A stretch of DNA of 64,000 nt, taken from the NCBI GenBank assembly GCA_903813345.2, contig CAIIXF020000001.1, positions 22,506,001-22,570,000 of the forward strand. Direction: 5' to 3'. Both the position numbers and the translations under genes were made by a program. The notes beneath the pieces are model-generated. The model searched no databases. It was given only the letters and a program-made list of their open reading frames with translations, and had not been told where the DNA came from. The first letter of the stretch is position 1, and the number at the start of each line of letters is the position of its first letter. Shown in pieces: positions 34,049 to 58,989 of this stretch. The DNA comes from Owenia fusiformis. Lineage: Eukaryota.

Positions 34049-35158
34049 ATGATCCTGATGATGATGTCCCGATTGTGATAATAGAACTTGAATGGTGGAG
34101 GAGTGGTATTAGACACTGTTTCTTTTAACGTTTGACCATGGTTTGGGATACTTGGGGTTTGTTTTCCTTGTAAATGGGGTACTCTACAGATGTTTCATTT
34201 TTCTTGCTGTGTTCTGTAACAATGCTTGGTCCTTTCTCATCTGGAACTTGTGCACATCACGGTGGGAAACAAAGGTATGAAGTTGACAATCAAACTGGTA
34301 AGCGAGTATGACTTGTATGCATACATATTCGTAAAATGGAAAATATTTTAGAGGATTTTTTATGACGTGAACCACAAACGTAAACATTTACGGGTCCCGT
34401 TTACGTACTATGAACTAAGGTGCCTTAAACTGAGCACTTCCGACGTAACGTAAACGTTTTTCTTTTTCTTAGCAGCCTTCGTTTTATGTTCTACTTTAAA
34501 AGTATAAACAATATTACTTTATTGACAAATTGATGAAAGACGTACAGTGAGAGTCAATTAAACATTTGCTTAAAACGTTGAAATTGAATTTATGTTTTAT
34601 CCACCTCATGAATTTGCATTTACTAAATTAGATTTTTAAAATTGCTTGATCATACCCAGGTAAATCCAGGTGAGTTGCAAATCATTAGGACCTAAACAAG
34701 CCATGATCTATATTAATGTATACATTCATACCTCAATATATTTGTCCACGTAATAACGAAACAAACAATTCTATTACGTTATAACCTTCCAATATAAATG
34801 CCGCAGTAAGTAATGGCCATTGATCTGTCTTTAAACCAACTGAAACATTGATTGCCTTTATCAAATTTCAATAAACGGGACATCCTACGTATTAGTAACA
34901 GGTAACATGTAACGTAAATCAGATGGCGAATTAAAATTGGAACTTTTCGCAGAGATCCATGGCAACATTATAGAATACACAAACGATGAATGAATTCATG
35001 TGTGAAACAACATTTTTGATTAAGTTGTATAAGTAAACAATTTAATTTTGCTTCACATATTTTAAAATATTTATACCAGCAAACTATTATAGTGATAATT
35101 TATTTGATTTAATGGCTAGCCCAAATGCATTTTGTTAGAGTGACAATATCAGCGAGAC

Positions 35159-36331
35159 ATGAAACGTTGGAAGACAGTCACGGCGCCAAAGAACTCCGAC
35201 ACCATCAACATATTCCTGGGAGGAAATGTCATGATCGGACGCGGGATCGATCAAATATTCCCTGAATCTTCCGATCCGTACATATTTGAAAAGAATACAC
35301 AAGATGCCAGAGACTATGTGAAACTAGCGATTAAGAAAAATGGAAAATTCTATCTGGAGCACGAAAAGCAAGCGATTGAGTACATCTGGGGATACGCAAT
35401 GAAAACATGGGAAAAGTACAAACCAGATGTTAAACTAATCAACTTGGAGACAACACTAACGACAAGTGACACTATGTGGCCGATGAGACCAACGCAGTTA
35501 AGAGCGCACCCAACAAATGTCAAATCTCTGAAAATTGCGGGGATTGACTGCTGTGGAATAGCGAACGACCATGCTTTAGATTATGGCTATCAGGGTTTAG
35601 ATGAGACTGTCAAGGTACTCAAAGAAGCAGGAATAAAATACACGGGAGCTGGTCGTTGCACAACAGAAGCAAAAGAACCTTGTATATTTGACATAGCAGA
35701 TAAGGGTCGAGTTATTATATTTTCTTTATGTACACACTCTAGTGGTGTACCAAACTATTGGGCAGCTACTACTAGTGGCACCACTGGTTTTGGAGTTAAC
35801 ACTATCAATATTGACATCAACACGACTGACTTCATTAATCTCAAAACACAAATTAAAGAAGTGAAGAAACCCAGGGATGTGATCATTTTGTCTCTTCATT
35901 GGGGAGAAGAATGGAACGCGCAAATTCACCAATCCCTAAGGGAATTTGCACACAGGGCAATAGACGAGGCCGAGGTTGATGCTATTCACGGTCACAGCAC
36001 TCATTTTCCACTAGGGATAGAGGTTTACAGAGAAAAACTGATCCTCTATGGGACCGGGGACCTGATTAATGACACAGAAGGAATGCCGGGTAAATACGAG
36101 GACAGCCAATGTGATTTAGGATTCATGTACTTTGCCAAAGTGAACCTCGACACTGGAAATCTGATCGAGTTGAGGTTGGTTCCATTTAGGATCAAACAAT
36201 TCAGATTGTGTACCCCGAACCCCAGAGATGTTAATCTAGCTGTGAACCCACTTAGAAGGAGATGTAAAGAGTTTGACACTGATGTTATACCAGCCATGGA
36301 TGGGCATGGTTTCTGGTTAGCCTTTAAATAA
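35159..36331 (+). CDS. capA: CapA / PGA_cap family (poly-gamma-glutamate capsule synthesis protein-like) calcineurin-like metallophosphatase, 390 aa, intronless
   Basis: Motifs G(N)VMIGRGIDQI, INLET, ANDHALDYG..GL..T...L..AGI..TGAG, LSLHWG, DAIHGHSTH, IEVY..KLILYGTGD in PGA_cap order. Uninterrupted ORF. An in-frame TGA at 35141 supports ATG 35159 as the start. Confidence 0.93.
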   Translation: MKRWKTVTAPKNSDTINIFLGGNVMIGRGIDQIFPESSDPYIFEKNTQDARDYVKLAIKKNGKFYLEHEKQAIEYIWGYAMKTWEKYKPDVKLINLETTLTTSDTMWPMRPTQLRAHPTNVKSLKIAGIDCCGIANDHALDYGYQGLDETVKVLKEAGIKYTGAGRCTTEAKEPCIFDIADKGRVIIFSLCTHSSGVPNYWAATTSGTTGFGVNTINIDINTTDFINLKTQIKEVKKPRDVIILSLHWGEEWNAQIHQSLREFAHRAIDEAEVDAIHGHSTHFPLGIEVYREKLILYGTGDLINDTEGMPGKYEDSQCDLGFMYFAKVNLDTGNLIELRLVPFRIKQFRLCTPNPRDVNLAVNPLRRRCKEFDTDVIPAMDGHGFWLAFK

Positions 36332-38418: not shown

Positions 38419-39879
38419 TATTTGACACATTTGCATCTTGTTCAGTGTTCTTCCATTGAAACAGGTTTCATTTGTCTATTCCAAATGGTCACCATTTTTG
38501 GCAATTCACAAAACATGCTTAAAATGTCGGTCTTGTATTTGGAGGTAAACTTAAACGCACCGGACGTTTTCTGACTATACGCTCTCAGATATCTTATGTA
38601 TCTTATGTAATGGCTCCCATTTCCCTCCATATCTCTTGTTTCAACTCTCTGGTGCTTCTGCAGTTGTTAATATACACATTTTCTACGAAATAGCCCTAAA
38701 GATAAATTCCGGGTGTTCATATTGGGTGATATTGATATGTTTTGGCATTTGGAGCATGTTTTGTGAAATTACGATAAAATCGTGACTATTGGAAATAGAC
38801 CAATGAAACTTTATAAAATGAGAGAATATAAAAAAAGTTCAATTGTACCAAATATGACTTAATAAGAGAGAATCAGAGATAGCGAGCAGGCTAAACAAAA
38901 AATTGTTCCAATTTTAGAATATTTTTGGTTCATCTTTTTGGCTCGCGTCCTTCCTTGTCATGTTTATTTTCTAAAAATCACAAAAGTACATACTTTATTA
39001 CAGGAAAACTAAAGATTTTTACAATAATAATTTTCTATAAGAATGGTTACCATTCTTATTATTTGGGAGAATTTAAACATTTTTCACCCACTTTTGCACT
39101 TTGAATCATTAATAATTACTTCACCAATTTATTACATATTGTGAATCTTTTTGGAGATATTGTATTTGACATTGTAAGGAATGGATTGGTAGGTCAATAA
39201 GACAAGTTGCTTGTAATTTTGTCACCCCCTATAGATCTGATTCTGCCTTTAAATCCCCTTACTGGATAATTAAGTGATTAAGATATGTTTGGGTTACCTT
39301 TTTTGGCTCATCCTGTAGTTTGAAGTATTTGTCATGCATCATGCCCTTCATCTTCCGGATATCGTCGATGTGCAAGATGAACAAACTCACACCGGCCTTA
39401 TAAATTATACATTTGTTACTGGGAACTATCAGAGTTTTTAGTTAATAAATCCACCAGAAGCTTATCAGGCTATGGGTGTTTATTTGACAAAATATTTTAC
39501 TTAAAATTACCATTTGTATTCGTTCAACTTCGCTTCTTAAAAGAGAGCCTCGTCTTCATGTAGTTTCATTATCTGTAAAGAAAAACAACAAAATTTTGGC
39601 TTGAAATATAAATTGACATTGCACTTCCAATACCTTCGATTTTTCTAATCTTTTTTCAAGGTCGGAAATTGATGACAAATCTGAAGAATTTATGAAAATA
39701 GTCGTTCCCACGTAAAACAATGGGAAATGGTTCTCGCAAAAATACAAGTAAAGTAGACAACTGAATTTACTAATTTTATTTTAGGGAAAATTGATATTTT
39801 TCTTCAGGTTCAACAAAGTTATTGGTGTCCAAAGTCAAAATTATTTATCAAGAAACCTGTGGAGGTTTAGGAAATAAAG

Positions 39880-40610
39880 TTTTTTTTTTATTTTATTTAT
39901 TTATATATTTCTACAAAGAATACATTAAACAAGTGCACATGTGCTTGTGGCTGGGCATCAGCATTATCAGCCACGTTATATGATAAAAACTCAATTAACA
40001 GAATTCAATCAGACATTAAAAAGGGGTTGTATTTGTGGAGGGTTACAGTGATGGGGATGACCTAGACATTTTTACATCGTTCAAAAAAGATGGCACTACA
40101 TTTGAGGATATTTAAGTTTACAGCTTTAGGTAGTCTTTTATCACCATTTAGGGTAAGGGAGAGTTTGTCTCGTTGTGATCTGTATTTAGAAGAATATTCT
40201 ATGTTCATATATTTTAATTCATTTTCAAATTCTGCCCAAAATGTTGATCTTAGATTGCAGTGGAAAATTACGTGATTGGTTGTTTCACCATCCATTCCAC
40301 ACTGGCAAATAGGGGAGTTTACATTAGTGAAATTATGAGCATAGAGGTGAGCCTTAAAAATGAGATCACATCGCACTCTATTGAAAATTATTTCTTGTTT
40401 TCTTGAAACGGAGAGTTCTGATGAATTTGTAACATCGTCATTGAATAGAACTATTTTAAGTCTGGATTTGAATATACTAAGGGTAGGTGAATTTCTTATT
40501 TCAGGTGAGAGCTTATTCCATTCAGTAAGTGTTTTTGATATGCAAGATCTATTAGAAAATGAGGATTTATTTGGAATTGTGTAGCTCAGTTGATTTCTTA
40601 GACCATAAAT
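39880..40610 (-). mobile_element. 5'-truncated LINE (CR1/L2-group 3' end)
   Basis: Minus frame EWNKLSPEIRNSPTLSIFKSRLK...CQCGMDGETTNHVIFHC; A-rich tail (forward TTTTTTTTTATTTTATTT at ~39880-39900). Confidence 0.8.
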
Positions 40611-40705
40611 AAATAAAGTTAGTTCACTTACATCTCCACCTTTTATCACAAGTATTTCCAATGCAAATTATTCATATAAAAATTAAAACAATGTTTAGAA
40701 AAATG

Positions 40706-40880
40706 CAGGCCCGTTGACAGGGGGGGGGGGGTCGATTGGTTCGAACGAACCCCCCCCCCCTGGCCAAAAATTCTTTATGCAGTTTTCACCATTCTGAGCA
40801 CTTTTTAAGTGATTTTGGCCATATTTGGAAAAAAAATTGTCAAAAGTGAATCCCCTTGGCAAATCCTGGCTATGGGCCTG
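40706..40880. mobile_element. Short hAT-like MITE with G/C tracts
   Basis: CAGGCCCGT...ATGGGCCTG inverted ends. Confidence 0.5.
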
Positions 40881-41375
40881 ATATGTGTTAGCAAGATTCA
40901 GAAATTTGATTTTCGCTGAATGTAGAATGTAGTCACAAAATATTTTGGGTCAAGTGTCAATGTCAAATTACAATGCATAATAAAACTTTGCTTCTTGACG
41001 TTTCAACTTATCTTGAAGTAGAAACGTAATTTTTTTATTGATACTTTAAAAGATTTATATGTCGTGTGTGCGTTTTGAAGTCAGTTTAACTTTTGCCCCA
41101 CTTCTCAAGTGGTATCGTCATCATACTTTATTGATCATTTGATTGGTTGGTCAATAGTCGCACATGCCCAAATATGGTTCGAGTATCGTGTGTCTGGGCC
41201 TCAGAATGCGCTAAGAGCGTCGGTGCGGGTTTATGAAGTCAAACGCATTCCGGCAATCAATGAACAAAGTATCTTAAGAAAACAATTTAGTGTAAATTAC
41301 AAACTGGACAAAAGTAAAATAATCGAACCTATCTAATATACGCTCTCGAATAGCCTAATAGGAACAATATCAAAA

Positions 41376-41565
41376 ATGGGGAACAGTTTGAATCAATGGA
41401 GAGCCACTATCGGAAAGTTTGAAGGCGGCAAGCCCAGACATATTTTGATATGTACTAAAGGCTCGGAAAGGTCAGAACATACTAGCACCGTGTTAGTCAT
41501 CCTCATGATGCTGTTGGTCATCGGCGGAATTGAGATGAATCCTGGACCAAATCCATCGAAGTCAG
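41376..41565 (+). CDS. Putative first coding exon ending in a 2A-like (StopGo) peptide; downstream exons not identified
   Basis: MGNSLNQWRATIGKF...TVLVILMMLLVIGGIEMNPG|PNPSKS, then a canonical donor TCAG|GTATGT at 41565/41566. CpG-rich region with an ATTGG (CCAAT) box at 41140-41260 upstream. Confidence 0.6.
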
Positions 41566-41810
41566 GTATGTTGACATTTTCATCTCATGCAACGCGCAAA
41601 GGTAACACTGGAAGATCACATCATAGCCATAGCATAGTACATGTATTTTTATTTGAATAAAGAAACTTATATAAATGTATTAATAGAAGATACCGCAGTA
41701 AAAATTCTAAATGTAAGTGAACTGTGAATTGTTCAATAACATAAGTTTCGCTGTAAAGCCTGAACGTCAGAAAGCAGATTGATCCAATAAAATGTCCCCT
41801 CTCCCTCTTT

Positions 41811-44492
41811 ACACCCCAGTCACATTTGTCGCACGGCGGCCGCAAGTCGACCGCAGATCAATTAAATCGGTGAATTTCTGCGGTGAGCGTAGAAAAACTA
41901 CGCTCGCCTTGCGGCCTCCGTACGGCGTATGCAGATTTTTACAGGCCGCAGGGAAGGCGTAGAAATTATAACTCGGAGTTATAATTTTTGTTCATTTCTG
42001 AGGTCGCCGTAGAAATCAACCGGCTCAACAAGATTAAATCATTATTTGTCAATGTTTCACGATCACTTCTCATTTGATATTACATCCTAGCACTATGAAT
42101 AACATTTATAAGTTGTCCCGATGTAAATAAAATGAAAAAAGTATTATTTATCAACAGAAATTTAAAATTCACCGTGCGGCTGCCGTGGGAAATGTGACTG
42201 CAAAAGTATGAGAGCGCAGAAATTCCAAGGCGAGCATAGAAATGTTACTGGCCGCAGAAATGATAGACCGCAAGGTCGCCGTAGGAAATGTGACTGGGTT
42301 GTTAGGTATATCTAAATTATTACTGACTATTATATTGATCCTAATAGATTTAATAATATATAATACCATTGGAATAAATATTCTGTTTCCAACACAAAGA
42401 TAATAAGCAAATATTTCATTCTATGGAGTGCAATACTTAAGTTCATCTTTCAATGATTTTTGCAGTATGTATTGCCCGCAGCCCGTAGGGCGAGGGAACA
42501 TAGAATGAAATATTTGTTTTATTATATCATTGCTAGACATTCTTTAAGATCACTTTGCATTTCAAAGAAATATAGAATATTTGTTTAATTAACCCGTAAA
42601 CATATACCTTAATCAATAAATATGTCATAAACCTATCAGTTAACATAATTATGTACAATTATCATTGTATCGTACACTTTTATTATACGTTTTTATAATC
42701 CAATAATTGAGGGAGCTGTGAAATAAGCTTTGGAATTTTTGATCTCATGGTACCAAATCAGCCAATCAGAGCACACGATTTCTAGCAATGATATAATAAT
42801 ACTATTAATTACACTGGCGCTAACACCCCAGTCACATTTGTCGTACGGAGGCCGTGCGTCGACCGCAGATCAATTACAGTAAATCAGTGTTTTTCTGCGG
42901 CGAGCGTAGGAAAACTACGCTCGCCTTGCGGCCTCCGTACGGCGTATCCATTTTTTTACAGGCCGCAGGGTCGCCGTAGAAATGATAACTTTGAGTTATA
43001 ATATTTGTTCATTTCTGAGGTCCCCGTAGAAATCAACTGGCTCAACAAGATTGAATCATTGTTTCACGATCACTTTTCATTTGATATTACATCCTAGCAC
43101 TATGAATAACATTTATAAATTGTCCCGATGTAAATAAAATGAAAAAAGTATTATTTATCAACAGAAATTTAAAATTCACCGTGCCGTACCGCTGCCGTGG
43201 GAAATGTGACTGCAAAAGTATTAGAGCGCAGAAATTCCACGGCGAGCGTAGAAATGTTACTGGCCGCAGAAATGATAGACCGCAAGGTCGTCGCCGTAGG
43301 AAATGTGACTGAAGTGTAACACCCCTGTCACATTTGTCGTACGGAGGCCGTGCGTCGACCGCAGATCAATTAAATCAGTGTATTTTCAGCGTAGGAAAAC
43401 TACGCTCGCCTTGCGGCCTCCGTACGGCGTAGCCTATCCAGTTCTTTACAGGCCGCAGGGTCGCCGTAGAAATTATAACTCGGAGTTGTTCATTTCTGAG
43501 GTCCCCGTAGAAATCAACTGGCTCAACAAGATGGAATCATTATTTGTCAATGTTTCACGATCACTTTTCATTTGATATTACATCCTAGCACTATGAATAA
43601 CATTTATAAATTGTCCGATGTAAATAAAATGAAAAAAGTATTATTTACACCCCAGTAACATTTGTCGCACGGCAGTCGCAAGTCGGCCGCAGATCAATTA
43701 AATCGGTGAATTTCTGCGGCGAGTGTAGAAAAACTACGCTCGCCCTGCGGCCTCAGTACGGCGTATCCAGATTTTTACAGGCCGCAGGGCCGCCGTAGAA
43801 ATTATAACTCGGAGTTATAATATTTGTTCATTTCTGAGGTCTCCGTAGAAATCAACTTGCTCAACAAGATTGAATCATTATTTGTCAATGTTTCACGATC
43901 ACTTTTCATTTGATATTACATCCTAGCACTATGAATAACATTTAAAAATTGTCCTGATGTAAATAAAATGAAAAAAAAGTATTATTCATCAACAGAAATT
44001 TAAAAATCACCGTGCGGCTGCCGTGGGAATTGTGACTGCAAAAGTATGAGAGCCCAGAAATTCTGCGGCGAGCGTAGAAAAGCAACTGGCCGCAGAAATG
44101 ATAGACTGCACGGCGGCCGCAGGAAATGTGACTGGGGTGTAACACCCCAGTCGCATTTGTCGTACGGAGGCCTTGCGTCGACCGCAGATCAATTAAATCA
44201 GTGTATTTCTGCGGCGAGCGTAGGAAAACTACGCTCGCCTTGCGGCCTCCGTACGGCGTATCCAGTTTCTTACAGGCCGCAGGGTCGCCGTAGAAATTAT
44301 AACTCGAAGTTATAATATTTGTCCATTTCTGAGGTCCTCGTAGAAATCAACTGGCTCAACAAGATTAAATCATTATTTGTTAATGTTTCACGATCACTTT
44401 TCATTTCAAATTACATCCTAGCACTATGAATAACATTTATAAATTGTCCTGATGTAAATAAAATGAAAAAAAAGTATTGTTTATCAACAGAA
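41811..44492. repeat. Head-to-tail array of a ~490-bp PIF/Harbinger-like MITE (left part)
   Basis: Units begin (A)CACCCCAGTCACATTT and end AAATGTGACTGGGGTG(T); junctions read GGGTG-TAA-CACCCC. Copies start at ~41811, 42823, 43319, 43647 and 44142. Confidence 0.85.
42355..42800. mobile_element. Crypton-like non-autonomous element
   Basis: AT-rich ends, internal TTATATCATTGCTAGA (~42522) inverted at the end as TCTAGCAATGATATAA (~42781-42796), and a GCCC..GGGCGAGGG hairpin. Confidence 0.45.
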
Positions 44493-47400
44493 AGGAGGAG
44501 GGAAGTTAGCGCAACAGATTTTGGACAGTCATATGTTTGATTTTGGCCATTTCCTGGGGATTAAACAGGTGCAAATGTTATAGACCTCTGCAAAAGGTCT
44601 CTCTGTAAAATGTGGTAGGCGTTTAGTGTTAAAAGTGTTCTGACAAGTGTTTCTTATGTAACTTTTTATGCTGAATCCAAAAGACCATGTTGGCAAGCTG
44701 AAATATGATTATTTAACCCTTAAAATACCATGTTAGTCCCCCCACCCCCAAAATTCACCCCTATCAGGGGGAAAAAATTCTCCAACCTAAAATAACTTTG
44801 ATTTTATGGTTTTTGTAAGTGAAATACATGGACATTGTATAAAATAAACATTTGAAGTATGAATGATACAGATTACCCTTAAGAAATTTGAATAAAAGCA
44901 AAAAGTATGTACCCCAGGGGGCAAATTTATGACCCATTTTTTTACTTTTTGTATCATAACTTTTTTATTAGACAATGATGGATGTTAAAAAAAATCATGT
45001 AAAAGGCTCAATACCTGGTCTACTAATGCTGCAAGAATCAAAGTAATACCTTTGATAATTGCCTTGAAAAAAATTAGTGAATTTAAGAAAAAATGACATT
45101 TTAGCTGGGACTGATTTTATGTGTGACTATAACTGACCCCTATTGCTTTAACATTTATCCCTCTGTGTTCATATATTTGGCATTTTAGAATAAATATAAA
45201 ATATAAAACTTATTTTAGCTAATTTTTAGGAAGATTTAAGCTTTTTAGCATGTTCAAATATTAAAAATTCATGAAATATGATGTCTAAAATTGATAAGTC
45301 ATAGGTATACTCTTGGAAGACCCCTATAATTTCTTATTTATGAACATATCTGTACCAATATTAGTTTTCTAGCTTAGAGAAACGATGTATGATATATCCT
45401 GGCTTGGCTTTCTGGTGGTTTGAACAATCTTTTAAGTGTTATTATTGAAAATTCATTCTTAAATCATAGGTCTGCAATCGATTAAATTCAAGTATACCAT
45501 TAGTATCATTTTACTGGTATGAGCATAATTGAACTAGCTATGATTTCATAGATTATTTGTTTGATGTATGACATATTCCGAGCTGACTTTCTGGTGATTT
45601 TAACCATCTAAGAGGCTTAATCATTGAAAACCATTACAAATAAAGGCTTAAACGGACAGTATTAAGGTACACTATTAGAATACCCTTATTATTTCCAGAC
45701 TTAGAGTTTATTGGTACCTACTACTGTTTCATAGCTCGGAGGTTTAATATATGATATATTCTGGCTAGTTTTTCTGCAGATTTGGACCACCTAACAGGTC
45801 TAATCATTGAATATACTTAATATACTAGGTCTAAAATTGAAGTATTCAATAGAACCCTCTATGGAAAAATTCAAAAAAGATTCAGAATGACATTAACCTC
45901 AACATTAGATCTGAATAATGATTAAAATCCTTCATAGAGCTGAACAAGGAAGACAAGGCTAATTTCATTCTAAGCAGCCTGACAATTGCATGACGTGAGA
46001 GCAAAAGTACCAATAATTCATACAAATCTTCATTTTATGGAGTTTTCTCCCCTGAACATTGTTTAGTCATATTAAAAAATCCCCCCCCCCGGTCCCCATT
46101 AAACATTCTGTATTACTCTTGGAGTTAAGGCAGAAATTCTTGACAAATGGCATATACTCACTATGACAACATTTTGAATTAGTGGGATGTTTCAGTTAAT
46201 GAGAGTTTTTGCAGAGTAGCAATTTTTTGCAATTTAAATCCATTAGGACCTTATATGGGTAATTAAAAAAAGATTCAGAATGACATTAACCACAACATTG
46301 GATCTGGAAATCAAATAAAGCAACTGATTGATGTGATCTCGGATGCCTCTTGTAAATCAGAATTACAATCCTTCATAGAGCTGAACAAGGAAGACAAGGA
46401 TTACTTTTCATTCTGGTAGTAATACATGGACATGGTCCAAATCTTGCTACGCTTCACCATAGCCTAAAGAAAGGGAAATTGGGAGCTTCATCCCAATATA
46501 TTTCAATGCATGATTCCCCTTTTCATGAGATATGACCACCAAAAGTATGCAAGATGGGGCACAGTTCACTTCACTGCTGAAGTTTTGCTTCCTTGAAGAC
46601 TGTCGCCAAATCCTCAGATGTAGATGCAATTGATGCTAATTTGTAAGAAGGATCATATATCGGAAATATTGCGGTTGGCATTTCAATACCATTTGTTAAA
46701 CAGTTAAACAGAAGAGTACATTTGAGTTGGCTTGAATATTTCATTCGTCAATGAGAGGGCTATTGGAAAAGACATCAGCTCATGTCTCATGATTTCATTG
46801 ATGCCCACAGGTCTGTGGTTAGCTTCATATGCAGTGATAAGATTCCGCAAAACATTCCTGTCTGCCCTAACAACTTTCTGCTCGTTTATATTGGGATTAG
46901 GCATATGTTTAAAAAATTTTGGTGCTTGCTCAGTAGATCAAGAAATGTTGTGTCTTTCATTTGACTCTGTTGGTATCAACCTCTAAGACGCAAAGACATC
47001 CAGTTGTTGTTGGCCAAACTGTTGAGCGCCTATGATTGTTTCTGTGAGTACATCTTTTGTACATACATAGATATAGGATTTTATTAGTACTGATGCCCTT
47101 TTAGGGCCAAACGTACATCCGATATACAATTTTCAATAACAGTAAATATAGCAATAAAGTAAAGAAAATAGGATTACATTCTTCAAATGACATATATAAA
47201 ATGTTACTTTGATATAAGAATCCTGTCTCTACCAATCATTAGATACTTTATCATGTCAGCAGCTTCTTTTAATATGATCCCCTCACTCGTCAATAGAAAA
47301 ATTGTCTTTTCGTGATCATTCATGTTTTTAAAATTACTACACAGGTTTTCAAGTTTTTCAATATGGGATTTTCTGATAAACTCCAATTTTTTACATTTGA

Positions 47401-47842
47401 ATAAAAAGTGTGTTTCATCCTCTATAACCGAGTCCTTACATATTTTACAAAATCGACTATTAAGATCAGTAATTGGTTTTGTATATCGGCCTCTCTCTAT
47501 CTCTAGATTGTGGGCGCTTATACGTAATCTAGTTAAATGTTTAGCGTTTGAAAGTGTCGTTTCTGAAAGGTAGTGTTCAAACCCAAAGTGCGATTTTAGT
47601 TGTTTAAATAATCTAAGTTTCCCCCCGTTCCCACTTATCAGATTCTTCCAATATACTTGGTATCTCTCTATTAATTTCTTTTTGACTTTAATAGCAAGCC
47701 TATTTGTGCTCTTCTCTATGTTTTCCTTATCTTCAAGATTCAATTCATCAGACATTTTTATTTTAATATGGCACAGTATATTTTTGAGTTGTTTGTGCCA
47801 TGTAAATGTGTTATTTGTTGAAACAAATGTTTTACTCATAAT

Positions 47843-48392
47843 ACTCCTATTCGCGATAAGAGTTCAGGTGGTAATTTACATAAATATCTCCCATGATGCA
47901 TCGCTTTGGAAGGGACAAATTTTAATTGGCCCGCGAACGAGTCTATACTCTGAACGTTTCTCAGCTTCTGACCTTCCATCAGCCCTCAAGCATAGTTATA
48001 TGATCCAATCTATTGAATAATCAGATAGATAATCGGAGATTCGAAGTAACATTATTGATATTCTTTCGATCTTCGATGAAGTCTGAGCAATTTGGGAAAT
48101 CAGTGACGTCACTGAAATTGGACGGCATTTTCAACTACAGATTTCTTCGGATTTGGGGATTACAGTTCAAAAAGCCTTGTTATATATCTTAATTACATAC
48201 ATACCTATCACTTCTGCAAATGCAACTCTACATAAATGTTTAATAAAGTCTCAGTGCGGCATTGAAAATAGCACCCCTGTGTAATCCAATGGGAAAGAAC
48301 CCGGATGTAGACGATGTTGTACCGTACACGAGAGCTCTTCAAACGAGAGTTAACTAAACTGAACGAAAACTAAACGTTATCGCGTATTGGTA
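47843..48392. mobile_element. TA-flanked MITE inserted in LINE ORF2
   Basis: Imperfect TIR TACTCCTATTCGCGATAA / TTATCGCGTATTGGTA; the ORF2 frame is interrupted exactly here. Confidence 0.75.
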
Positions 48393-49832
48393 TATTAATG
48401 AATCGTTTAGTAAACTCCCATTTGAACTCAACTCTAAATGACCGAGGTATTTGATTTGTATTTTTATAATATCGACTACCAAAGGTATTCTTCCCAATTC
48501 TCCTCTTACTGCCATGTTTGTGGCTTTTCTATGAACTCCGAGAACATATTTTTGGAACCGAATATGATTGTTTTCAATTAAAGTACTTTCGTATTTATGT
48601 TCAATATCTCGATTAGTTAGGCAGTCACGCTTGGTATATATATCATTACACCATATTTCCGACCCGTATAAAGCGACGGGTTTGATAAGTTGATCATACA
48701 ATTTCATTTTCAGTGAAGACTTCATCTCTGTGCCGCTTGTCAATTGATAAACTTTAAACATGGCTTTATTTGCTTTTTCCTTTATGTTTTGCTGGGCCGG
48801 TTTAAAAGATCCCGAAGCACTTAAGATAATTCCCAAATATGTATACCTTTGAACATTTTGTATAATTTTACCATTTATTTGAAATCGTTCTTGACAAACT
48901 TTGCCACATTTCCAGAATTTCATAATTTTTGTTTTGTCAATGTTAATTTCAAGTTTCCAGTCATCACAGAAGGATTCAAGAGTGTTTAGTTTTAGCTGCA
49001 TTCCTTCTTTACTAGTATCAAATATGACTAAATCGTCTGCGAATAGCAAACTGCTAACATGCTGAGTTTCAAGGAATGGAGATTTCCCAACATTATCAAA
49101 CTTTTTTATAATATCATTTATATATATGTTAAATAATAATGGACTGAGCGAGTCTCCTTGTTTTACACCCCTAGCACATGAAAACGATTCCGTATAAGTT
49201 GAGTGATTAAGTTTTACACACGCCGTGGCATTTTCATACATGGTTTTAATGATTTTGTAGAAGTGCCCTTTAATTCCTGACTTTTGTAACTTATACATAA
49301 GGCCTGTGTGCCATATCGAATCAAATGCCTTCTTTAGGTCCACAAAGCAGGCATAAAAATTACATTTATTTTGATGAACATGTTTGTCAATAAGAGACCG
49401 AATTATAAATATATGGTCGGTCGTCCTTGCTTTCTTCATAAAACCTGCAAGGTTTTGTGAAATAATATTATTTGATTTGACAAATGCATAAAGGCGATTA
49501 TATAGCACATTGGAGAAAATTTTCGATAAGCATTCCGAAATAAATATGCCACGATAGTTACCTGGTACTCGAGGGTCATTTTTCTTGTAAATTGGTACAA
49601 TATAGGATTCATTCCACGATACTGGGTATTGGTTATTAGATAATATTTCATTGAATATCTTGCAAATGCGAGGAATTAAAATTTGCCTTCCTGTCTTTAC
49701 CCATTCATTAGATATTCCACTTTTACCCGCAGCTTTTTTATTTTTTATTTGGTTTACTACCGTATTGATCTCTTCATATGTTATCTTGTAATTAAGTTCG
49801 TCAAAATTAGGCTCGTTTTCTAGTTTTTTCAA
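48393..49832 (-). pseudogene. LINE ORF2 reverse transcriptase domain
   Basis: RT motifs NYRGI, GF...TTDHIF, FVDLKKAFDSI, GVKQG, FADD, YTYLG; flanked by frameshifts and insertions. Confidence 0.92.
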
Positions 49833-50429
49833 TCTAATTAGAATATCGTTGTCATCATTACTGTTATTTGAAAATAATTCAGAAAAATGATTTTTCGAAA
49901 GTCTTCAAGTTTCAAAATTAGACTGTTTTTGAATCGTTTATTGCTTGACTTACATAATTTTCTATATTGTTTGAGTACATGGAAATAGGATTTTCGAGTT
50001 ATTCGTTGTTCGGTGATTTCACCAGTTGTAAACCCAATCGTCTAACGCGCTTATTCAAAACGGAACAAGAAACGTTATACCATGCTTTGTTATTCCTTTT
50101 ATTAGGTTGCGACTTTTTTCTTTTCTTTAGAGATAATGTTGCTGCTGTAATAAGTAAATCATTTAATTTATTCATACTTTCATTTACCCTGTTTTGTGGA
50201 CAGTGCTCAATAAGCTCATCCAATGAGTTTAATTTAGCTGCGATCGGCGCTGTTTGAAGAGTTTCACGAAAGACAGTTGGGGATAAGTTACCCCATTTGA
50301 ATGAATTCGCCTTCGAACTTACATGATTTTTTTTGGTGCAGATAGGATTCTTATAACGATTTTCTACTTTAAGTAACATGGAAATCATGCAATGATCTGA
50401 TAAAGAGCTTAAACTATCATGAACCTTAA

Positions 50430-51424
50430 AGTGTGCGCCCGACCCGGCTACGTATAGCACAGAGTTTATACTGGCGGATTAGACTAGTTCATTTTTTATA
50501 TGTGTGTGAAAGCTTTCTCTTATTTGCGTTTTTTCGTTTAGTACGGTTCTGTTATAATTGCAAAGGTCATATAACCGGGATAAAACAATGATTATCGTTG
50601 ACTGCCCACACACAAAACATACGTTGAGTGAACAGTACTAGTGTTATTACAAACAACAGGCTTTAGAATACAAAGCGTAGTGTGATAATAAGCTGTACAC
50701 TACCACTGCTGCATGTACATATTACTAATTTACTAGGGCTCCCAAAGAGTGGATAGGGAGGTTGTGTTTGTCACTTTTAAATTTTACATTTCAAAATTGT
50801 CATTTTACATGTCATAATTTGTTGGTTTCATTCGTTTAGCCAATCAAAACATTGTAAAACAATAAATTGTCTGTTACGTACAATCAATTTTGTTCAGTTT
50901 TGATTAGTTGTCAGAATAAAGTTACGTTCATCTGAATCCATGTATCAAAACAAAAATCCTATTTTCACTTCAAAATACTTCAGTGAGATGAAGGCTCGGA
51001 ATTGTCACATGCAATAACTTATTGTCGTATTCGTTATTTTATCTTCTCGATAGTAGCATTTAGTCGCACATTTGATGCCAGGTCACCTTGTCGCGTACCT
51101 CTTGGGGAACCCCACATTTATGTTTGTACTCATGGAAGTAAATTCCCCGGTGTAGAGAGCCACAAACTTTTCAACAGGTTCGAAATGACCAAATTCTCTC
51201 ATATATACTCTAAATATTTTATTGTTTAGCACCTACAAAGTATTGCTAATAACCATATGTAATTTCAATAAGGAAACTTATCTGGCTACATGTAAATTCA
51301 ATATCAACACTAACTGTTCTCTCAACACGTCCTGGCTTACCTTGTGGTGACAAACCCTGGATTTTCGCTATTTATAGTTTATCAACACCTGGACGCATGC
51401 GCATTTTATAGTTTATCGGGCACT
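50430..51424. mobile_element. TTAA-flanked (Kolobok-like) insertion in the LINE endonuclease
   Basis: TTAA|AGTGTGCGCCCGA...TCGGGCACT|TTAA; removing it restores RIRLFK-VHDSLSSLSDH. Confidence 0.85.
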
Positions 51425-52200
51425 TTAAATAATCTTATTCTATTCATGATTGACTGTTTTGCAAGGCAATAGTCAACAGTACTACTACCATTGTATTTAT
51501 GGCATGTGAACGAACCAAATGTGTCGCCAAAAATACGACCGTTCAATATTCTCATGTTTGTAGATTTGCATATATCAAGCAATTTGTAGCCACATTCGTT
51601 CACTTTTGAATCTTTGTTCAAACGTGAAGTTGGTACTGAGTCAATTATGTAATCATCATAAAGTGGAATTGTACTATCTCCATCACATTCAATATAATCA
51701 TTTAGAACACCGGTTCTTGCATTGAAATCTCCCATCATTATTTTGTCCCCAAGACTTGATATTTTTGATAATTCAGCTAAAAGCGTGTCAAAGGGGTCAA
51801 CCGTGTCCATGGTCTTTTTAACATAATTTGACGGGGATATGTAATTAAATCCCAGGTAGATATCATTGTTCAAACCGAAGAAAATCCTTTTCATTTTAAC
51901 CCACATTAAATCGGGCGTTGTTGATTGAATTATCTGAATTCCAGGAGTTAAATGCTTTTGTATAAATACTGCAACACCACCATGTCTTTTATTGCCGGTT
52001 TTTGAACGGTTTGAGCAAAATGACGTATACCCTTCTAGGGAGAACGAACTGCCCTTATCACCATGTGTTTCAGTCATACCTATAATGTGATGCTTTTTGA
52101 TTTCTTTCGTAAAATCAGCGTTTTCAAGCTTATTGAACATATTGTTTTTAATTCCTTGTACATTCCAACATGCAACAGATAAGTGTGATCCATTATTCAT
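51425..52200 (-). pseudogene. LINE ORF2 apurinic-like endonuclease domain
   Basis: WNVQG, GMTETH, GGVAV, YISP, GDFNAR, GSSTVDY; the frame resumes (KVHDSLSSLSDH) after the 50430-51424 insertion. Confidence 0.92.
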
Positions 52201-52743
52201 GCTACAACGTGTTTTACAAAGTCTGTCAACGATTTAGTGATATTTAATGAGTTATAACAATGTATAAAGTTCACCATATAATATTTAAAATGATATGTGA
52301 TACTTACAATACAACACGTATATACTACAATACTCTAAGACATTTTATACTATATTATCGTTATGTACTTGTACTAAGACTTAATATAAATGGTATTTCA
52401 TACCCAACACTACATGTACTTTTCAGTAATTAACAAATGGTGTGTTTAGATGGTTAGTTTCACCATCTATCAAACCACTTTCTCTGGCCTTGAAATGGTC
52501 TCTTAGGACCAAACCTTTGTGGGGGAGTGATGTTACATAGTTTCCTAATGCAATCGAGGATGTTTTTACATAAAACTGATGTACCCCTTTCGTTTGGGTG
52601 AACTCCGTCTCTGTATAAAGATGTGTTTGGGGTTCCATTTCTTCCAAGGTTGCTGTTTAGAGAGCATGTAACCTGTCGATCATCGTGATATTTGGCTTGT
52701 AGCTGGGCTGATATGGATGCTGATCTAATGTTCCATAATTCAT

Positions 52744-54288
52744 CACGGGGTACCATCGAATAATTTTGGCAACGTACCGGAGAACGACATTTTACTAAGA
52801 AATGGCAATAATTTAGCACAATATATTTTTTAACTAGAGTTCTATTTTGATTTTGACAAAAGTAAGTATTCCATGCAATAACTATTTCATTCATAAGTTT
52901 GTAGGAATTCTGTTGGAACCCAGTTCTGATCAAGTACGAAGTTATTGAAATCGGCGCAGACGGACTTTACTCCGAAAGATGGTTTTTCGATTATAACTTT
53001 TCACAACATTTAAGTATAGACTTTTGAAAAAAGTACAGAATAGTCCTTATACTTTTGAATAATTCTGTTATTTCTGATTCACACGACTCTGATTTGTTTA
53101 ATTAAAAAAAAGTTTTAAAAATATTACTTAGGAACGTAACCGGAGCTGGGAACGTAACCGGAGCAGATCAGTTGAATTATTTAATCAAAAAATTAAAATA
53201 TATGATTTAAAGCACATATACTAATTTAAAAACATACGGGATTGTTCGAATGCGTATTTATTACATTTTATTTAAAGAAAAAAAATTATCCATTGTGAAA
53301 AATTAAATTTGGTATTTACCATGCATAAGTGCAATTACCTTAGAAAGGCTATCAAACATAGAACAATCATTGTATGGAGAATGAAGTGATTAAATGTAGT
53401 AAGCAAATAATTCCATTTGATTTCACCCATTGTATTTGTTCAGCGAACTATTAGAACCCACTCTGTTATACTAATTTCGTATATATATACTGTTTATACA
53501 TACATGTAGTATACTTCTAAGACAACTTCTCTTTTTCAGGGGAAATAAAAGCATTTAAATGCTAGTACTTGTCATGTGCTCGACCAAATCGAATCAACAT
53601 ATGCTTTCTGAAATTCTTCACCTAACCCCCCCCCCCACTGCATATAAACGTAAGATGTTTGAGTGAGTGCCCGTTTATTGTTTTATGCAAAACCAGTTGT
53701 TATCCATCTTTGTTTCGATAAACCTAGGCGTGGGTCATTAAGCAAGTAAGAAAGTGAATGCTTTTTTCTAGTTAAACTACAGAACATTGCTTTTCAGTCG
53801 TTAATAGACAGTGTTCTATAATTCTATCACACCAAGTAAGCTGACATATGTGTTTGTAAATAATATATATGCTTTAAATCATATATTTTATTTTTTTAAA
53901 TTATATAATTCAACTGATCTGCTCCGGTTACGTTCCCAGCTCCGGTTACGTTCCTAAGTAATATTTTTAAAACTTTCTTTTTAATTAAACAAATCAGAGT
54001 CGTGTGAATCAGAAATTACAGAATTATTCAATAGTATAAGGACTATTCTGTACTTTTCGGAGTAAAGTCCGTCTGCGCCGATTTCAATAACTTCGTACTT
54101 GATCAGAACTGGGTTCCAACAGAATTCCTACAAACTCATGAATGAAATAGTTATTGCATGGAATACTTACTTTTGTCAAAATCAAAATAGAACTCTAGTT
54201 AAAAAATATATTGTGCTAAATTATTGCCATTTCTTAGTAAAATGTCGTTCTCCGGTACGTTGCCAAAATTATTCGATGGTACCCCGTG
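52744..54288. mobile_element. Long-TIR MITE with CAC ends and a 5-bp TSD (Transib-like)
   Basis: TTCAT|CACGGGGTACCATCGAATAATTTTGG...CCAAAATTATTCGATGGTACCCCGTG|TTCAT; TIRs ~420-480 bp; removing it restores ORF1 PPPRSDNE-LWNIRS. Confidence 0.88.
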
Positions 54289-55837
54289 TTCATTGTCGCT
54301 TCTTGGTGGTGGTAAAGATAGAACGATCTTCGTATTTCCAAGTTTCCTCTTAGTCTCATTTACCAGAGTATGCATCTCGTCGATTATGCCAGAGTCCGTT
54401 TTTTGACTATCTTTGATATCATTCTGATAACCTGGTATACTACAACATCTGGTTTCTTTAAACTTTCCAGAGATTTTCTGGCTTGTGGTATGGTGTATGC
54501 ATGTTCTAAGTAGGCGTCCATATCATGCATACGACTTGTTTTCACCAAGCTCAAAATCGAAGAACCGATAAGGGCTACTGATGGCTTCGACTTCTCGATA
54601 GAATCGATTGGCACCTCTGTTGGTTTAGGCTTACTTTGGACAGTTTTAAAGGGTTGGGTATCAGAATTATCAGCAAGAACCTTACATTGTATCTTTAGAT
54701 CACTGATCTCTTCCTGGGCCTTTGCTAGTTTCACATTATTTGACGTGATTTGTTCTGTGATTTCTTCTATTTCTCGGTTCTTACTATTAAGCTTATTTTC
54801 TATTATGTCAAGTTCTCTAGCTTTGATTTTTAGCGATCTGTTTTCCGTCTCCAGTGCAAACCTTTTTTCGTTCGAAATGTTTATCATTTTATGAAGATCT
54901 TCAATCTCTTGGTTTTTAGATTGTAGAATAGCTCTCTGGTGGTTAAGCTCACTTTGTAGCGTGCTCAGTTGTTTCGACTTGTCTAGACTTTCATTCATTG
55001 CTAGTTATTTCTCCCTCATTAGTTGTTTTATTGAATTGTCATTTTCTTTGATTACCGAATCTGCTCCTTTGTCAACCACTACTTTATCCATTAAATCAGC
55101 AAATGTTTTTTCGAGATTTTCAAGTTTAAGTAGGCGTTCAAGTATCTCCTCGTGGTTGTTTTGCATTTTGTATTCAATGTCTTCAACTTTTGTTCTCAAA
55201 CGAATGTTGTCTAAGAAACTAGATGGATCTCGCGGAGATATTGGCGTATCATGACTATCATTGATTAATTGAGAAACTGTTGCTGTAGTGTTCATTTCGT
55301 CCGTGAGGTTATTATCTGCAATTCTTATGGCATCTATCAAACCCAATTCATTTTCAGAGTCTGGATCAATGTCCGATTCGTCGAAAATATCTGATACTTC
55401 ATTGGTTTTAGTTCTCAGGTTATATCTCTTTGCCATTTTAATATCATAAACAATTCTTTACACTGGACGAAGAGTTTATAGCAGGATGACGCAACGTCAC
55501 AAGGTTTTCACATTAATTTCGAACAATTTACACTGAACGAAAAGAGTTTATAGTAAGATGACGCAACGTCACAATATTTTCTCAATATTTTTTGGGCGAT
55601 AATAGGGATATATATCAAATTTATCAAATATCTTTAAAAAACGATCTGTTTAGATTACTGTTTGTCACAAAACCCACGTGATATCATTCCTAGGAACTTT
55701 AAGTGTCTCTCAATGGTATATCTAGTCCGTTTCACTCATTATATATCACCAAAATGTTGAATTAGAACCAGTACCGCATTTTACGTCTTGCAGTTATGCC
55801 GGATTACGCTTTGGAAGTCATATACTTTGGAGATTAA

Positions 55838-56251: not shown

Positions 56252-57217
56252 TTAAGTAATGGATCTTCTGAAAACATGCCAAACTTCAGCAGCATGTCAC
56301 ATATTTTATCTTCTTCCATAGATTCATGTTTTGATTTGTAAATTACCACCCCCCCCTCTATGGAATCTCGAAATGCAAGTCCAAACATCATTCTTGTTTG
56401 GACTACCCATGTGTGACCTAAGATTATACCCCGGTGCCCATCTATTCAATGCAGATATTGTCTTTGTGTTATGCCTAAACTTCTGCCACCCTTCTAACCA
56501 ATAGCATACTGGCATAGGGGTCAATCAACTTGGTTGATTGAATTTGTAGAGCCTTTTACCACATAGTTTCAATGCAAGAATCCTCGCTCAACTGCAGCAG
56601 GTACTAGTAGTTAGTGCATTTCCTCTAAGTTTACTGTGCCCCACCTTCCATAATTGTGGTGGTCATGAAATAAGGGATCATGCATTGAAATGGATCGAGA
56701 TGAAGCTCCTTATTTCCCTTTCTTTGGGCTTGGGTGAAGTATAGCAAGATTTGGACCATGTCCATGTATCACCACCAGAATGAATTTAGCCTTGTCTTCC
56801 TTGTTCAGCTCTATGAAGGATTTTAATCATTATTCAGATCTAATGTTGAGGTTAATGTCATTCTGAATCTTTTTTGAATTTCTCAAAGAGGGTTCTATTG
56901 AATACTTCAATTTTAGACCTAGTATATTAAGTATATTCAATGATTAGACCTGTTAGGTGGTTCAAATCTGCAGAAAAACTAGTCAGAATATATCATATAT
57001 TAAACCTCCGAGCTATGAAACAGTAGTAGGTACCAATGAACTCTAAGCCTGGAAATAATAAGGGTATTCTAATAGTGTACCTTAATACTGTCTGTTTAAA
57101 CCTTTATTTGTAATGATTTTCAATGATTAAGCCTCTTAGATGGTTTAAATAAACAGAGAGTCAGCTCGGAATATGTCATACATCAAACTAATCTATGAAA
57201 TCATAGCTTGTTCAATT

Positions 57218-57637
57218 TTATTATTTTGGTCAATCTTGCATATTTTGCTTTAATATTTCAGAATTATTTACTTCATTTAATGTGAATTTTGTTGTGAACG
57301 TTTAATGATAATCTGAAATTTTACAACACATGCCCCATGTGGCCACCACTCCGGCCAACGAAGCTGTTGATGACTCTCGTACACATACCATCATGGATTG
57401 CAAGCTTCTAATGAAGCTATCCACTTAAAATTGAAGAACATCTGAGAATTTGTCTGACACTAGTTTTTGGACATATGTTGTAAAGTGCTGTAGTTTTTGA
57501 CTCCATCGGCAGATTATCATGAAACTTTCACAACAAAATTCACATTGATTGAACTAAATAATTGAGAAGTTTTGAGGAAATGCAGGATTGACAAAGTTAA
57601 TTAAATTTTCTTCGGACCTGTTTTTTTGGACACCCTG
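57218..57637. mobile_element. Truncated Tc1/mariner-type insertion in the right Academ-like arm
   Basis: Absent from the left arm; ends TTTTTTGGACACCCTG|TA. Confidence 0.65.
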
Positions 57638-58989
57638 TACCAGTAGAATGAAACTAATGGTATACTTGAATTTAAGCGATTGCAGATCTATGATTTAAGA
57701 ATGAATTTTCAATGATAACACCTAAAATTGTTCAAACCACCAGAAGGCGAAGCCAGGATATATCATACATTATTTCTCTAAGCTAGAAAATTAATATTGG
57801 TACAAATATGTTCATAAATAAGAAATTATAGGGGTCTTCCGAGGGTAAACCTATAACTTATCAATTTTAGACATCATATTTCATGAATTTTTAATATTTG
57901 AACATGCTAGAAAGCTTAAATCTTCCTAAAACTCAGCTAAAATAAGTTTTATATTTTAGATTTATTCTAAAATGCCAAATATATGAACACAGAGGGATAA
58001 ATGTTAAAGCAATAGGGGTCAGTTATAGTCACAAATAAAATCAGTCCCAGCTAAAATGTCATTTTTTCTTAAATTAACTAATTTTTTTCAAGGCAATTAT
58101 CAAAGGAATTACTTTGATTCTTGCAGCATTAGTAGACCAGGTATTGAGCATTTTTCATGATTTTTTTAGCATCCATCATTGTCTAATAAAAAAGTTATGA
58201 CACGAAAAGTAAAAAATTGGTCATAAATTTGCCCCCTGGGGTACATACTTTTTGCTTTTATTCAAATTTCTTAAGGGTAATCCATATCATTCATACTTCA
58301 AATGTTTATTTTATACAATGTCCATGTATTTCACTTACAAAAACCATAAAATCAAAGTTATTTTAGGTTGGAGAATTTTTTCCCCCTGATAGGGGTGAAT
58401 TTTGGGGGTGGAGGGACTAACATGGTATTTTAAGGGTTAAATAATCATATTTCAGCTTGCCAACATGGTTTTTTGGATTCAGCATAAAAAGTTACATAAG
58501 AAACACTTGTCAGAACACTTTTAACACTAAACGCCTACCACATTTCCTCTAGATGAAAATGCGCCTTGTCTATTAGGCGAATTCATGAAAATCACTTCTA
58601 GAGATGATAAAATAATTTCGACTTTGAGACAGGGTAGATGCAAACAACCCACCCACATGTTTTTTCCGAAATGTTTTCCTGATTTTCAACCCCTTCCAAC
58701 CTTGCTTTTTTAATTTTTCTTGCATCAATATGTTGCGTTTTGACATACAGTTAATCCCTTAAAAGGAATAAATGATTCCTTTTAGATAAAGTGGAAAACA
58801 ATATTTCCCATGTTATTTTCCCATAGGAAAAATCATTGCTTTCAGCTAAGTTTGGTCACCCATAATGGGTATCTTTAAAACTGGAGGTAATGCATTGGCC
58901 TAACATATGCAATTGTTTAAATCCTCTGAAAATGGCCAAAATCAAACATATGACTGTCCAAAATCTGTTACGCTAATTTCCCTCCTCCT

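Follow-up and report, generated by a model that had tools for sequence, protein, structure and literature searches.

N-terminal 2A-like sequences have been described for ORF2 of non-LTR retrotransposons (Odon et al. 2013, PMC3708506), and a 2026 preprint (PMC13405545) describes 2A-like peptides ahead of the coiled coil in ORF1p-like proteins. Among host genes, 2A-like leaders have been described in only a handful of families, namely sea-urchin NLRs (Roulston et al. 2016, PMC4981915) and the RapGEF, ankyrin-like and death-domain proteins of the 2026 preprint. In the sea-urchin work, the origin of such sequences was called beyond reach because they are so short (PMC4981915). The published expanded 2A core reads (D/G/C/N)(V/I)ExNPGP, and GxExNPGP is a recognised non-canonical core (PMC13405545).

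We analysed a 64-kb stretch of the Owenia fusiformis genome, hereafter the window, which is AT-rich (31–38% G+C). A sequence-only reading of the window had proposed that a retroelement-derived 2A leader, followed by a splice donor, was exapted as exon 1 of a spliced host gene. Positions 41376–41549 of the plus strand encode MGNSL...LLVIGGIEMNPG|P; NPSKS comes next, and then a G|GTATGT donor at 41565|41566. The full frame from the ATG at 41376, which lies in a Kozak-like context (AAAATGG), translates as MGNSLNQWRATIGKFEGGKPRHILICTKGSERSEHTSTVLVILMMLLVIGGIEMNPGPNPSKS. The last complete codon before the consensus-like GTATGT is S63, ending at 41564, and G41565 opens a split codon. The features of the segment are as follows.

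40932 to 41375, plus strand: upstream region and probable 5′ UTR, common with the paralogue(s) according to contig colinearity; inverted CCAAT at 41142
41376 to 41565, plus strand: leader coding exon, 63 codons and the first base of a split codon (phase 1), from reading of the sequence and tblastn
41376 to 41420, plus strand: N-terminal box MGNSLNQWRATIGKF, conserved as MG..(Q)WR..IG.(F/W) in a 25-leader alignment and by hhalign
41490 to 41531, plus strand: hydrophobic stretch VLVILMMLLVIGGI running into the 2A core, from hydropathy and the P0017 model
41523 to 41549, plus strand: 2A-like core GGIEMNPG|P, with the predicted StopGo site between 41546 and 41547
41566 to 41571, plus strand: splice donor GTATGT, the exon ending ...TCAG at 41565, from reading of the sequence and the P0023 and P0004 alignments
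41566 to 41584, plus strand: first 19 nt of the intron, still shared by read-through contigs (contig alignment)
41566 to 41660, plus strand: frame tail if unspliced, 32 codons, with a TAA at 41658–41660 that overlaps AATAAA at 41656–41661

The residues G-I-E-M-N-P-G-P at 41526–41549 match the expanded core. Directly before the core stands VLVILMMLLV, in the place of the leucine-rich hydrophobic helix of 2A peptides (about −19 to −10). The 15-residue Kyte–Doolittle mean peaks at 2.91 over residues 38–52 of the leader, and the matching stretch is helical, with low confidence, in the model of a related protein (P0017, below). The hydrophobic run begins at residue 39, behind a polar N-terminal part of 38 residues; up to the skip site, the leader comprises 57 residues. 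Translated in six frames, the 64 kb contain a single NPGP, whereas 200 block shuffles gave an expectation of 0.175; the extended motif (D, G, C or N, then V or I, then ExNPGP) occurred in 0 of 200 shuffles. A Pfam search of the leader ORF matched no family.

We then searched for relatives of the leader using its 65-residue peptide against 1.84 billion representative proteins (E ≤ 1e-3). The search returned 21 proteins, of which 19 aligned over the leader, all 19 with NPGP. P0002 and P0005, which are internally repetitive and were matched in 26 and 7 stretches, respectively, were treated as spurious. Named matches came from a word-indexed search of longer proteins: P0023 (1369 aa) and P0004 (1215 aa), each an "unnamed protein product [Owenia fusiformis]". 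This search returned two of eight candidates, and its blanks carry little weight because it missed family members found by another route. A protein search at similar size (35–114 aa) gave no candidate, and a search of the ESM Atlas gave no usable match.

In tblastn, residues 1–63 of P0023 were identical to 41376–41564 of the window at 61 of 63 positions (97%; E 3.3e-33); the leader of P0004 was 59% identical to that of the window. Both alignments stop at S63, directly before the window donor, and the next residue in both proteins is E, which is obtainable from G + AA/AG and fits the split codon at G41565. The switch from leader to body in P0023 and P0004 coincides exactly with the donor. The two proteins are 65% identical across 1206 residues, and after ...NP(S/Q)SKS both read E-I-T-(E/Q)-K-M-Y-D-L-G, with E(I/V)T in relatives. 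The leader frame, the NPSKS tail and the canonical donor of the sequence-only reading are thus confirmed by their coordinates, by the shuffles and by the 19 NPGP-bearing relatives. A chance ORF with a fortuitous NPGP has short length in its favour and nothing else; it was ruled out by the homology search, the P0023 match, the shuffles and the profile comparison given below, and we assign it next to no probability.

A search with the body of P0023 (residues 60–660) yielded 35 proteins at E ≤ 1e-5, 17 of them named Owenia fusiformis. According to Pfam, all family members scanned contain TPR arrays. DUF294, a putative nucleotidyltransferase of the PII-uridylyltransferase N-terminal type, exceeded the Pfam cut-off in P0027, P0036 and P0032, and the same three proteins contain an OTU domain. 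The family architecture is the leader where present, OTU in some members, the DUF294-type nucleotidyltransferase and the TPR array. An (N/D)PGP leader heads 8 of the 17 Owenia members (P0023, P0004, P0028 with MDPGP, P0029, P0030, P0032, P0036 and P0027), and an NPGP leader was found in 0 of the 18 non-Owenia body relatives. Since leaders head Owenia members and no non-Owenia relative, we consider the leader to be an exon-1 module of the DUF294-TPR family in Owenia. P0035 begins with another N-terminal part, whose junction with the body lies at the same point. The models of P0026, P0031 and P0033 begin at the Met of MY(D/E/A)LG, just inside exon 2, that of P0026 starting MYDLGCKIK.

An alignment of 25 leaders revealed a common architecture: the MG..(Q)WR..IG.(F/W) box, a variable spacer and LLVIGG(V/I)E.NPGP. 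The natural core variants in the family are GGIEMNPGP, AGVEENPGP, AGVEQNPGP, GGVHLNPGP, GGIELNPGP, GGVEVNPGP and GGIEMDPGP. By sequence, these comparisons show the window segment to be an intact copy of the leader exon, with upstream region, start codon, 63 codons and phase-1 donor, of a family expanded in Owenia. A Met-Gly start is, as a rule of thumb, a sign of N-myristoylation. For this leader, such a modification is speculation only, because the favoured small residue at position 6 is absent in most family members.

The bodies of the family have relatives of another kind (P0050 and P0054), whose names point to a Holosporaceae bacterium and a gammaproteobacterial MAG, and P0032 has a weak match to SidM_N, the N-terminal domain of a Legionella effector. 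The sequences hint at an exchange of the DUF294-TPR body with intracellular bacteria.

To address the origin of the leader, we compared it with that of a second group of proteins (P0017/P0025, P0020, P0024 and P0018), in which the leader stands ahead of a coiled coil and a C-terminal domain. In a profile–profile comparison (hhalign), six host leaders matched four leaders of coiled-coil proteins with a probability of 99.7 (E 2.7e-25, 63 columns). When the last 22 residues, containing the 2A part, were removed, the probability was 98.2 (E 4.5e-14, 20 columns). The homology thus extends beyond the short 2A motif. P0017 was modelled with AlphaFold2; the model, modest in quality (mean pLDDT 59, C-terminal blocks up to 85), comprises a long helix, a beta-alpha-beta-beta-alpha unit and one further domain. 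In a Foldseek search of the PDB with this model, the best ten matches were all human LINE-1 ORF1p (10/10; E 2.9e-7 to 1.5e-4). Pfam and PDB sequence searches of the leader-bearing coiled-coil proteins gave generic coiled-coil matches only, so the link to ORF1p depends on the fold search with its modest model. The ORF1p-like proteins are 40–47% identical to the window leader, versus 97% and 59% for the N-termini of the host genes.

Homology of the leader to the N-termini of LINE-1 ORF1p-like proteins, even without the 2A part, supports a retroelement origin. More specifically, the sequence and model comparisons support a leader that is either derived from the N-terminus of LINE-1 ORF1p-like proteins or related to it by common ancestry. 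This homology agrees with the 2A-like peptides described ahead of the coiled coil in ORF1p-like proteins (PMC13405545) and at the N-terminus of ORF2 (PMC3708506). With 58–63 residues and a conserved N-terminal box, the leader is long enough for retroelement homology to be traced. At the level of the family, the proposed exaptation of a retroelement-derived 2A leader as a spliced host exon 1 is upheld by the homology to ORF1p and by the coincidence of the leader/body switch with the donor. Two further proteins carry the leader: P0003 has two leader-type 2A units in tandem, and in P0016 a Ulp1-type protease domain (Peptidase_C48, E 4.4e-7) comes after a pair of 2A units. Genes of other types, probably mobile ones, therefore carry this leader as well.

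We next compared positions 38500–41780 of the window, at 90% likeness, with contigs from four sequencing runs of two studies; runs X3 and X7–X11, which share few words with the region, were left aside. The four runs are guessed to be RNA, no run being on record as RNA for 41100–41800; their contigs drop rare variants and show presence, not absence. Cover extended over approximately 41140–41584 at a depth of 4–54, versus hundreds to ∼100,000 on the flanking repeats, and contigs of runs X2 and X5 start near 41140. The promoter-like DNA that the sequence-only reading had placed upstream finds weak support: the CpG observed/expected ratio is 1.36 for 41100–41349 versus 0.70 window-wide (top 8.5% of 250-nt windows), and the CCAAT evidence is the single inverted box.

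The DNA 3′ of the leader consists, in order, of ∼200 nt of unique sequence, a ∼300-nt repeat array, and inverted repeats flanking a LINE on the minus strand. The repeat arrays at 41782–44478 and 58898–59757 have units of ∼300–500 nt in 5–6 copies, 60–98% alike and MITE-like in look; the first starts 200 nt 3′ of the leader and the second lies past the foldback. The long inverted repeats (44491–46528 and 56663–58991), with arms of up to 444 nt that are 92–99% complementary, form a foldback-like structure of ∼14 kb with the LINE inside. The LINE, at 47204–55457 on the minus strand, is a near-complete non-LTR retrotransposon with no 2A-like motif, and its parts are as follows.

54384 to 55457, minus strand: LINE ORF1, coiled-coil, with its own start
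51406 to 52233, minus strand: LINE endonuclease domain (Exo_endo_phos)
48354 to 49904, minus strand: LINE reverse transcriptase domain (RVT_1)
47204 to 47863, minus strand: LINE C-terminal part

An inverted duplication (52744–52977 and 54055–54288, 234-nt arms, 100% complementary) lies between ORF1 and the endonuclease. This LINE was rejected as a partner of the leader: it runs antisense to the leader, its ORF1 has a start of its own, and it contains no NPGP. On the 5′ side of the leader, 40062–40667 (minus strand) is a C-terminal piece of another LINE ORF2 (weak zf-RVT match, E 0.0098), oriented away from the leader, and 38830–39600 and 40700–40919 are very high-copy repeats with a summed contig depth of ∼100,000 across the four runs. 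Further upstream, the plus-strand ORF at 35144–36331 (protein 35159–36328) is an intronless PGA_cap gene encoding 390 aa (Pfam E 1.4e-65). Its domain is full and bacterial-type (poly-gamma-glutamate capsule synthesis, CapA-like), and the exact protein is present in public collections; an old horizontal acquisition into the animal genome is possible. Open frames at 7513–8222 (plus strand) encode a tandem peptide-like repeat (…MTVTMLYYIARPV…), probably a minisatellite.

These surroundings bear on whether the segment is simply what is left of the 5′ end of a non-LTR retrotransposon with a 2A, cut short or disrupted right after that 2A, a possibility that the sequence-only reading itself had raised. 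The region is TE-rich, the same leader family heads ORF1p-like proteins, and a weak similarity to P0018 extends a few codons beyond the donor. We nevertheless judge this origin very improbable. The N-termini of host genes are by far the nearest relatives of the leader, no second copy of it was found within the 64-kb window, and the contig depth on it is low compared with that on the flanking repeats. Moreover, the upstream homology is to the promoter region of a paralogous gene. The observation that no LINE body follows the leader proved correct: no coiled coil, RRM, APE or RT was found on the plus strand after it in the window, the sole APE/RT being that at 48354–52233 on the minus strand.

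Contigs covering positions 41447, 41458, 41484 and 41540 all carried a letter other than that of the window, in four of the four runs. The contig letters at 41458 and 41484, where the window has A, yield K28T and S37G, which are the residues of P0023; the differences at 41447, at 41540 and, in some of the contigs, at 41435 leave the protein unchanged. The window thus differs from the P0023-type coding sequence by three synonymous and two non-synonymous changes. An exact match to the window copy was absent from the contigs of the four runs (guessed to be RNA). A further leader type in the contigs differed from the window at 14 of 151–159 positions (∼91% identical). Record 16 of run X4 (772 nt) was colinear with 40932–41584, with 24 mismatches over 653 nt and 41 gap letters. 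Mismatch amounted to ∼4% in the exon (6/151) and likewise over 40932–41584, most of which is upstream DNA.

The 3′ ends of the contigs are of two kinds. Record 32 of run X6 (268 nt) follows the window to 41565 and has three letters more, which is what a spliced form would show. By contrast, the fit of X4 record 16 and X5 record 24 stops at 41584, 19 nt into the intron, and is followed by 37 and 63 further unlike letters, respectively, at which the contigs end; the stop is therefore either a homology break or maybe a mere indel. An alternative donor at 41584 was rejected for these read-through contigs, as no GT follows 41584 and the frame would shift. Cover was ∼1 over 41585–41689, from the tails of contigs whose fit ends at 41584, and 0 over 41690–41780 in three runs; neither stretch was given any weight. 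Judged from their letters, close paralogues of the leader are probably present in the four runs as RNA.

Tentatively, we favour the reading that the window copy is a detached, recent duplicate of the 5′ end of the P0023 gene, which falls just short of being probable on the sequence comparisons. The bodies of P0023 and P0026 (residues 60–660) are 87% identical at the protein level, a divergence of 13%. Set against this, the ∼4% nucleotide divergence of the window copy makes it look younger than the P0023/P0026 gene pair, and the contrast favours a P0023 5′ end that was duplicated recently over an exon 1 that diverged alongside P0026. A tblastn search of the 64 kb with P0023 beyond the leader gave nothing better than E 6. 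Similarly, when an HMM of 13 family proteins was run against all six frames of the window, the leader ORF was the sole match (E 1.4e-4), the next best scoring E 3.5. The paralogue letters in every contig at 41447, 41458, 41484 and 41540 also count for detachment, and the ∼91% leader type could serve P0026. An orphan module of promoter and exon 1 would produce at most a short transcript for the leader and a 38-residue tail.

Counting against detachment, nothing in the start codon, frame, 2A core or donor is disrupted, and the ratio of three synonymous to two non-synonymous differences leans weakly towards constraint (about 1 in 10 under neutrality). The copy may instead be a working first exon, spliced from 41565 over an intron of more than 22.4 kb to a DUF294-TPR exon 2 beyond the window, which we regard as possible but doubtful. 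The best candidate for the body is the P0026 gene, and the intron would span the MITE-like array, the foldback and the antisense LINE. The contig bearing the window's PGA_cap protein and that bearing P0026 and P0023 both have 62,201,769 bases, so the window most likely lies on the chromosome that carries the P0023/P0026 pair; the accessions of P0026 and P0023 are consecutive. P0026 is modelled from the exon-2 Met without a leader and could therefore own the window exon across a long intron. The models of P0031 and P0033 are cut at the same point, so annotators often miss exon 1. The intact ORF, Kozak-like context, 2A core and strong donor, together with the synonymous excess among the coding differences, are likewise as a working exon would have them. 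However, none of the four runs contained a contig with the window letters, though two other leader types were present; the copy differs from the P0023 5′ end by 4% whereas the bodies differ by 13%, a discrepancy that would require gene conversion; and there is no family body within 22.4 kb. For the window copy itself, therefore, the proposed use as a host exon 1 was not supported: the window contains neither exon 2 nor body, and the copy's own letters are missing from the contigs of the four runs.

The same contig data could also reflect an artefact of assembly, in which the other haplotype of the P0023 5′ region stayed in the scaffold and mimics a local duplication. Alleles of very heterozygous marine invertebrates can show a mismatch of ∼4%; the window copy shows such a mismatch, together with many small indels, relative to the expressed P0023-type sequence, and its letters are absent from the contigs of the four runs. 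We consider an artefact unlikely. The PGA_cap gene, 5 kb upstream, forms a cluster with no other member and was seen on one contig, so any duplicated block is small, and TE-rich sequence without a body continues for the next 22 kb. In addition, one DNA-type run contains 68% of the words of the stretch, although this run may be the assembly's own source. A detached duplicate of the P0023 5′ end thus remains the reading that we prefer.

The leader resembles the 2A elements of retrotransposons (PMC3708506, PMC13405545) in that the core lies 40–80 residues from the N-terminus, after a hydrophobic leucine-rich helix. In the ORF1p-like cases, the 2A precedes the coiled coil (PMC13405545), and the window leader is homologous to such leaders. 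It differs from retrotransposon 2As in being a separate exon, with a donor six codons past the site and no retroelement ORF after it, and in that its closest relatives head host DUF294-TPR proteins. The available text of PMC3708506 and PMC13405545 contains no mention of the MG..QWR..IG box.

The window core has Gly in place of Asp at its head, and the sequence-only reading had cautioned that this variant may skip only partially. In published work, the D-to-A substitution at the corresponding position kills the FMDV 2A, and among substitutions of the corresponding Asp in two viral 2As, none reached an activity of 0.6. The 2A1 of DHAV-1 shares the Gly-for-Asp change and is reported to skip (PMC6249498); it is a linker in a viral polyprotein, whereas the window element is an N-terminal leader. 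The concern is softened, by analogy, by the recognised GxExNPGP core (PMC13405545). The nearest tested peptide in the available text of this preprint is LLLVLLVLLVIGGVEMNPGP, which is identical to the window peptide VLVILMMLLVIGGIEMNPGP at 14 of 20 positions, including LLVIGG.EMNPGP. It was assigned to the "falloff" class, producing the upstream product only in a human-cell (HEK293T) reporter (PMC13405545); it was assayed as a 20-mer inside a fluorescent reporter, unlike the N-terminal leader context of the window.

By analogy with these systems, the nascent ...IGGIEMNPG in the exit tunnel would block formation of the Gly-Pro bond and the 57-residue leader peptide would be released. Translation may then resume at Pro58 to yield a leaderless cytosolic body, or may stop ("falloff"), in which case body synthesis would be throttled. 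Without skipping, the body would stay fused to a hydrophobic N-terminal segment. On the strength of published 2A work, including the falloff peptide with 14 of 20 identities, release of the 57-residue peptide with reduced or partial synthesis of the body is to be expected. Reduced body synthesis would fit the down-regulating role proposed for retroelement 2As (PMC3708506).

As in the sea-urchin NLRs (PMC4981915), the leader is an N-terminal 2A-like element in an expanded, repeat-bearing host family, and two protein forms might likewise arise from one mRNA. The sea-urchin element, however, is 26 aa long and is itself the signal peptide, with ER-signal activity both predicted and demonstrated (PMC4981915), whereas the window site lies at residue 57/58. 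The sea-urchin body is NACHT-LRR and the Owenia body is nucleotidyltransferase and TPR. The leader is not an extreme N-terminal element of ∼26 aa of the SpNLR type, its hydrophobic run starting at residue 39 of 57. The sea-urchin signal-peptide model therefore fits imperfectly, the run starting 38 residues in; dual targeting in the sea-urchin style by the window leader is possible by analogy.

In the literature, we found no 2A-like host genes from Owenia or annelids, although the supplementary tables of PMC13405545 (4,218 peptides) may list them; its main text does not contain "Owenia", "annelid" or "tetratricopeptide". Nor did we find an annelid DUF294-TPR family with an exon-encoded, two-part leader homologous to ORF1p.

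The homology between host-gene leaders and ORF1p N-termini is statistically solid, and the leader lies on its own exon. The Owenia family thus provides a concrete case of an annelid host family that reuses a retroelement recoding signal. The core variants that occur naturally in the family (GGIEMNPGP, GGIEMDPGP, AGVEENPGP and GGVHLNPGP) also lend themselves to assays. For annotation, any model in this family that begins at the exon-2 Met is probably missing its real first exon. More speculatively, an ORF1p-derived promoter and bipartite 2A leader could constitute a portable first exon, kept on or grafted onto many genes of an expanding annelid OTU/nucleotidyltransferase/TPR family (possible sensors) and gating their translation; the window would then contain a recent duplicate of the cassette, either in search of a body or supplying one more than 22 kb away. 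We consider this unlikely as a whole. If true, the cassette would release a 57-residue peptide that starts with Met-Gly and is hydrophobic at its C-terminus, followed by a leaderless cytosolic enzyme or by nothing.
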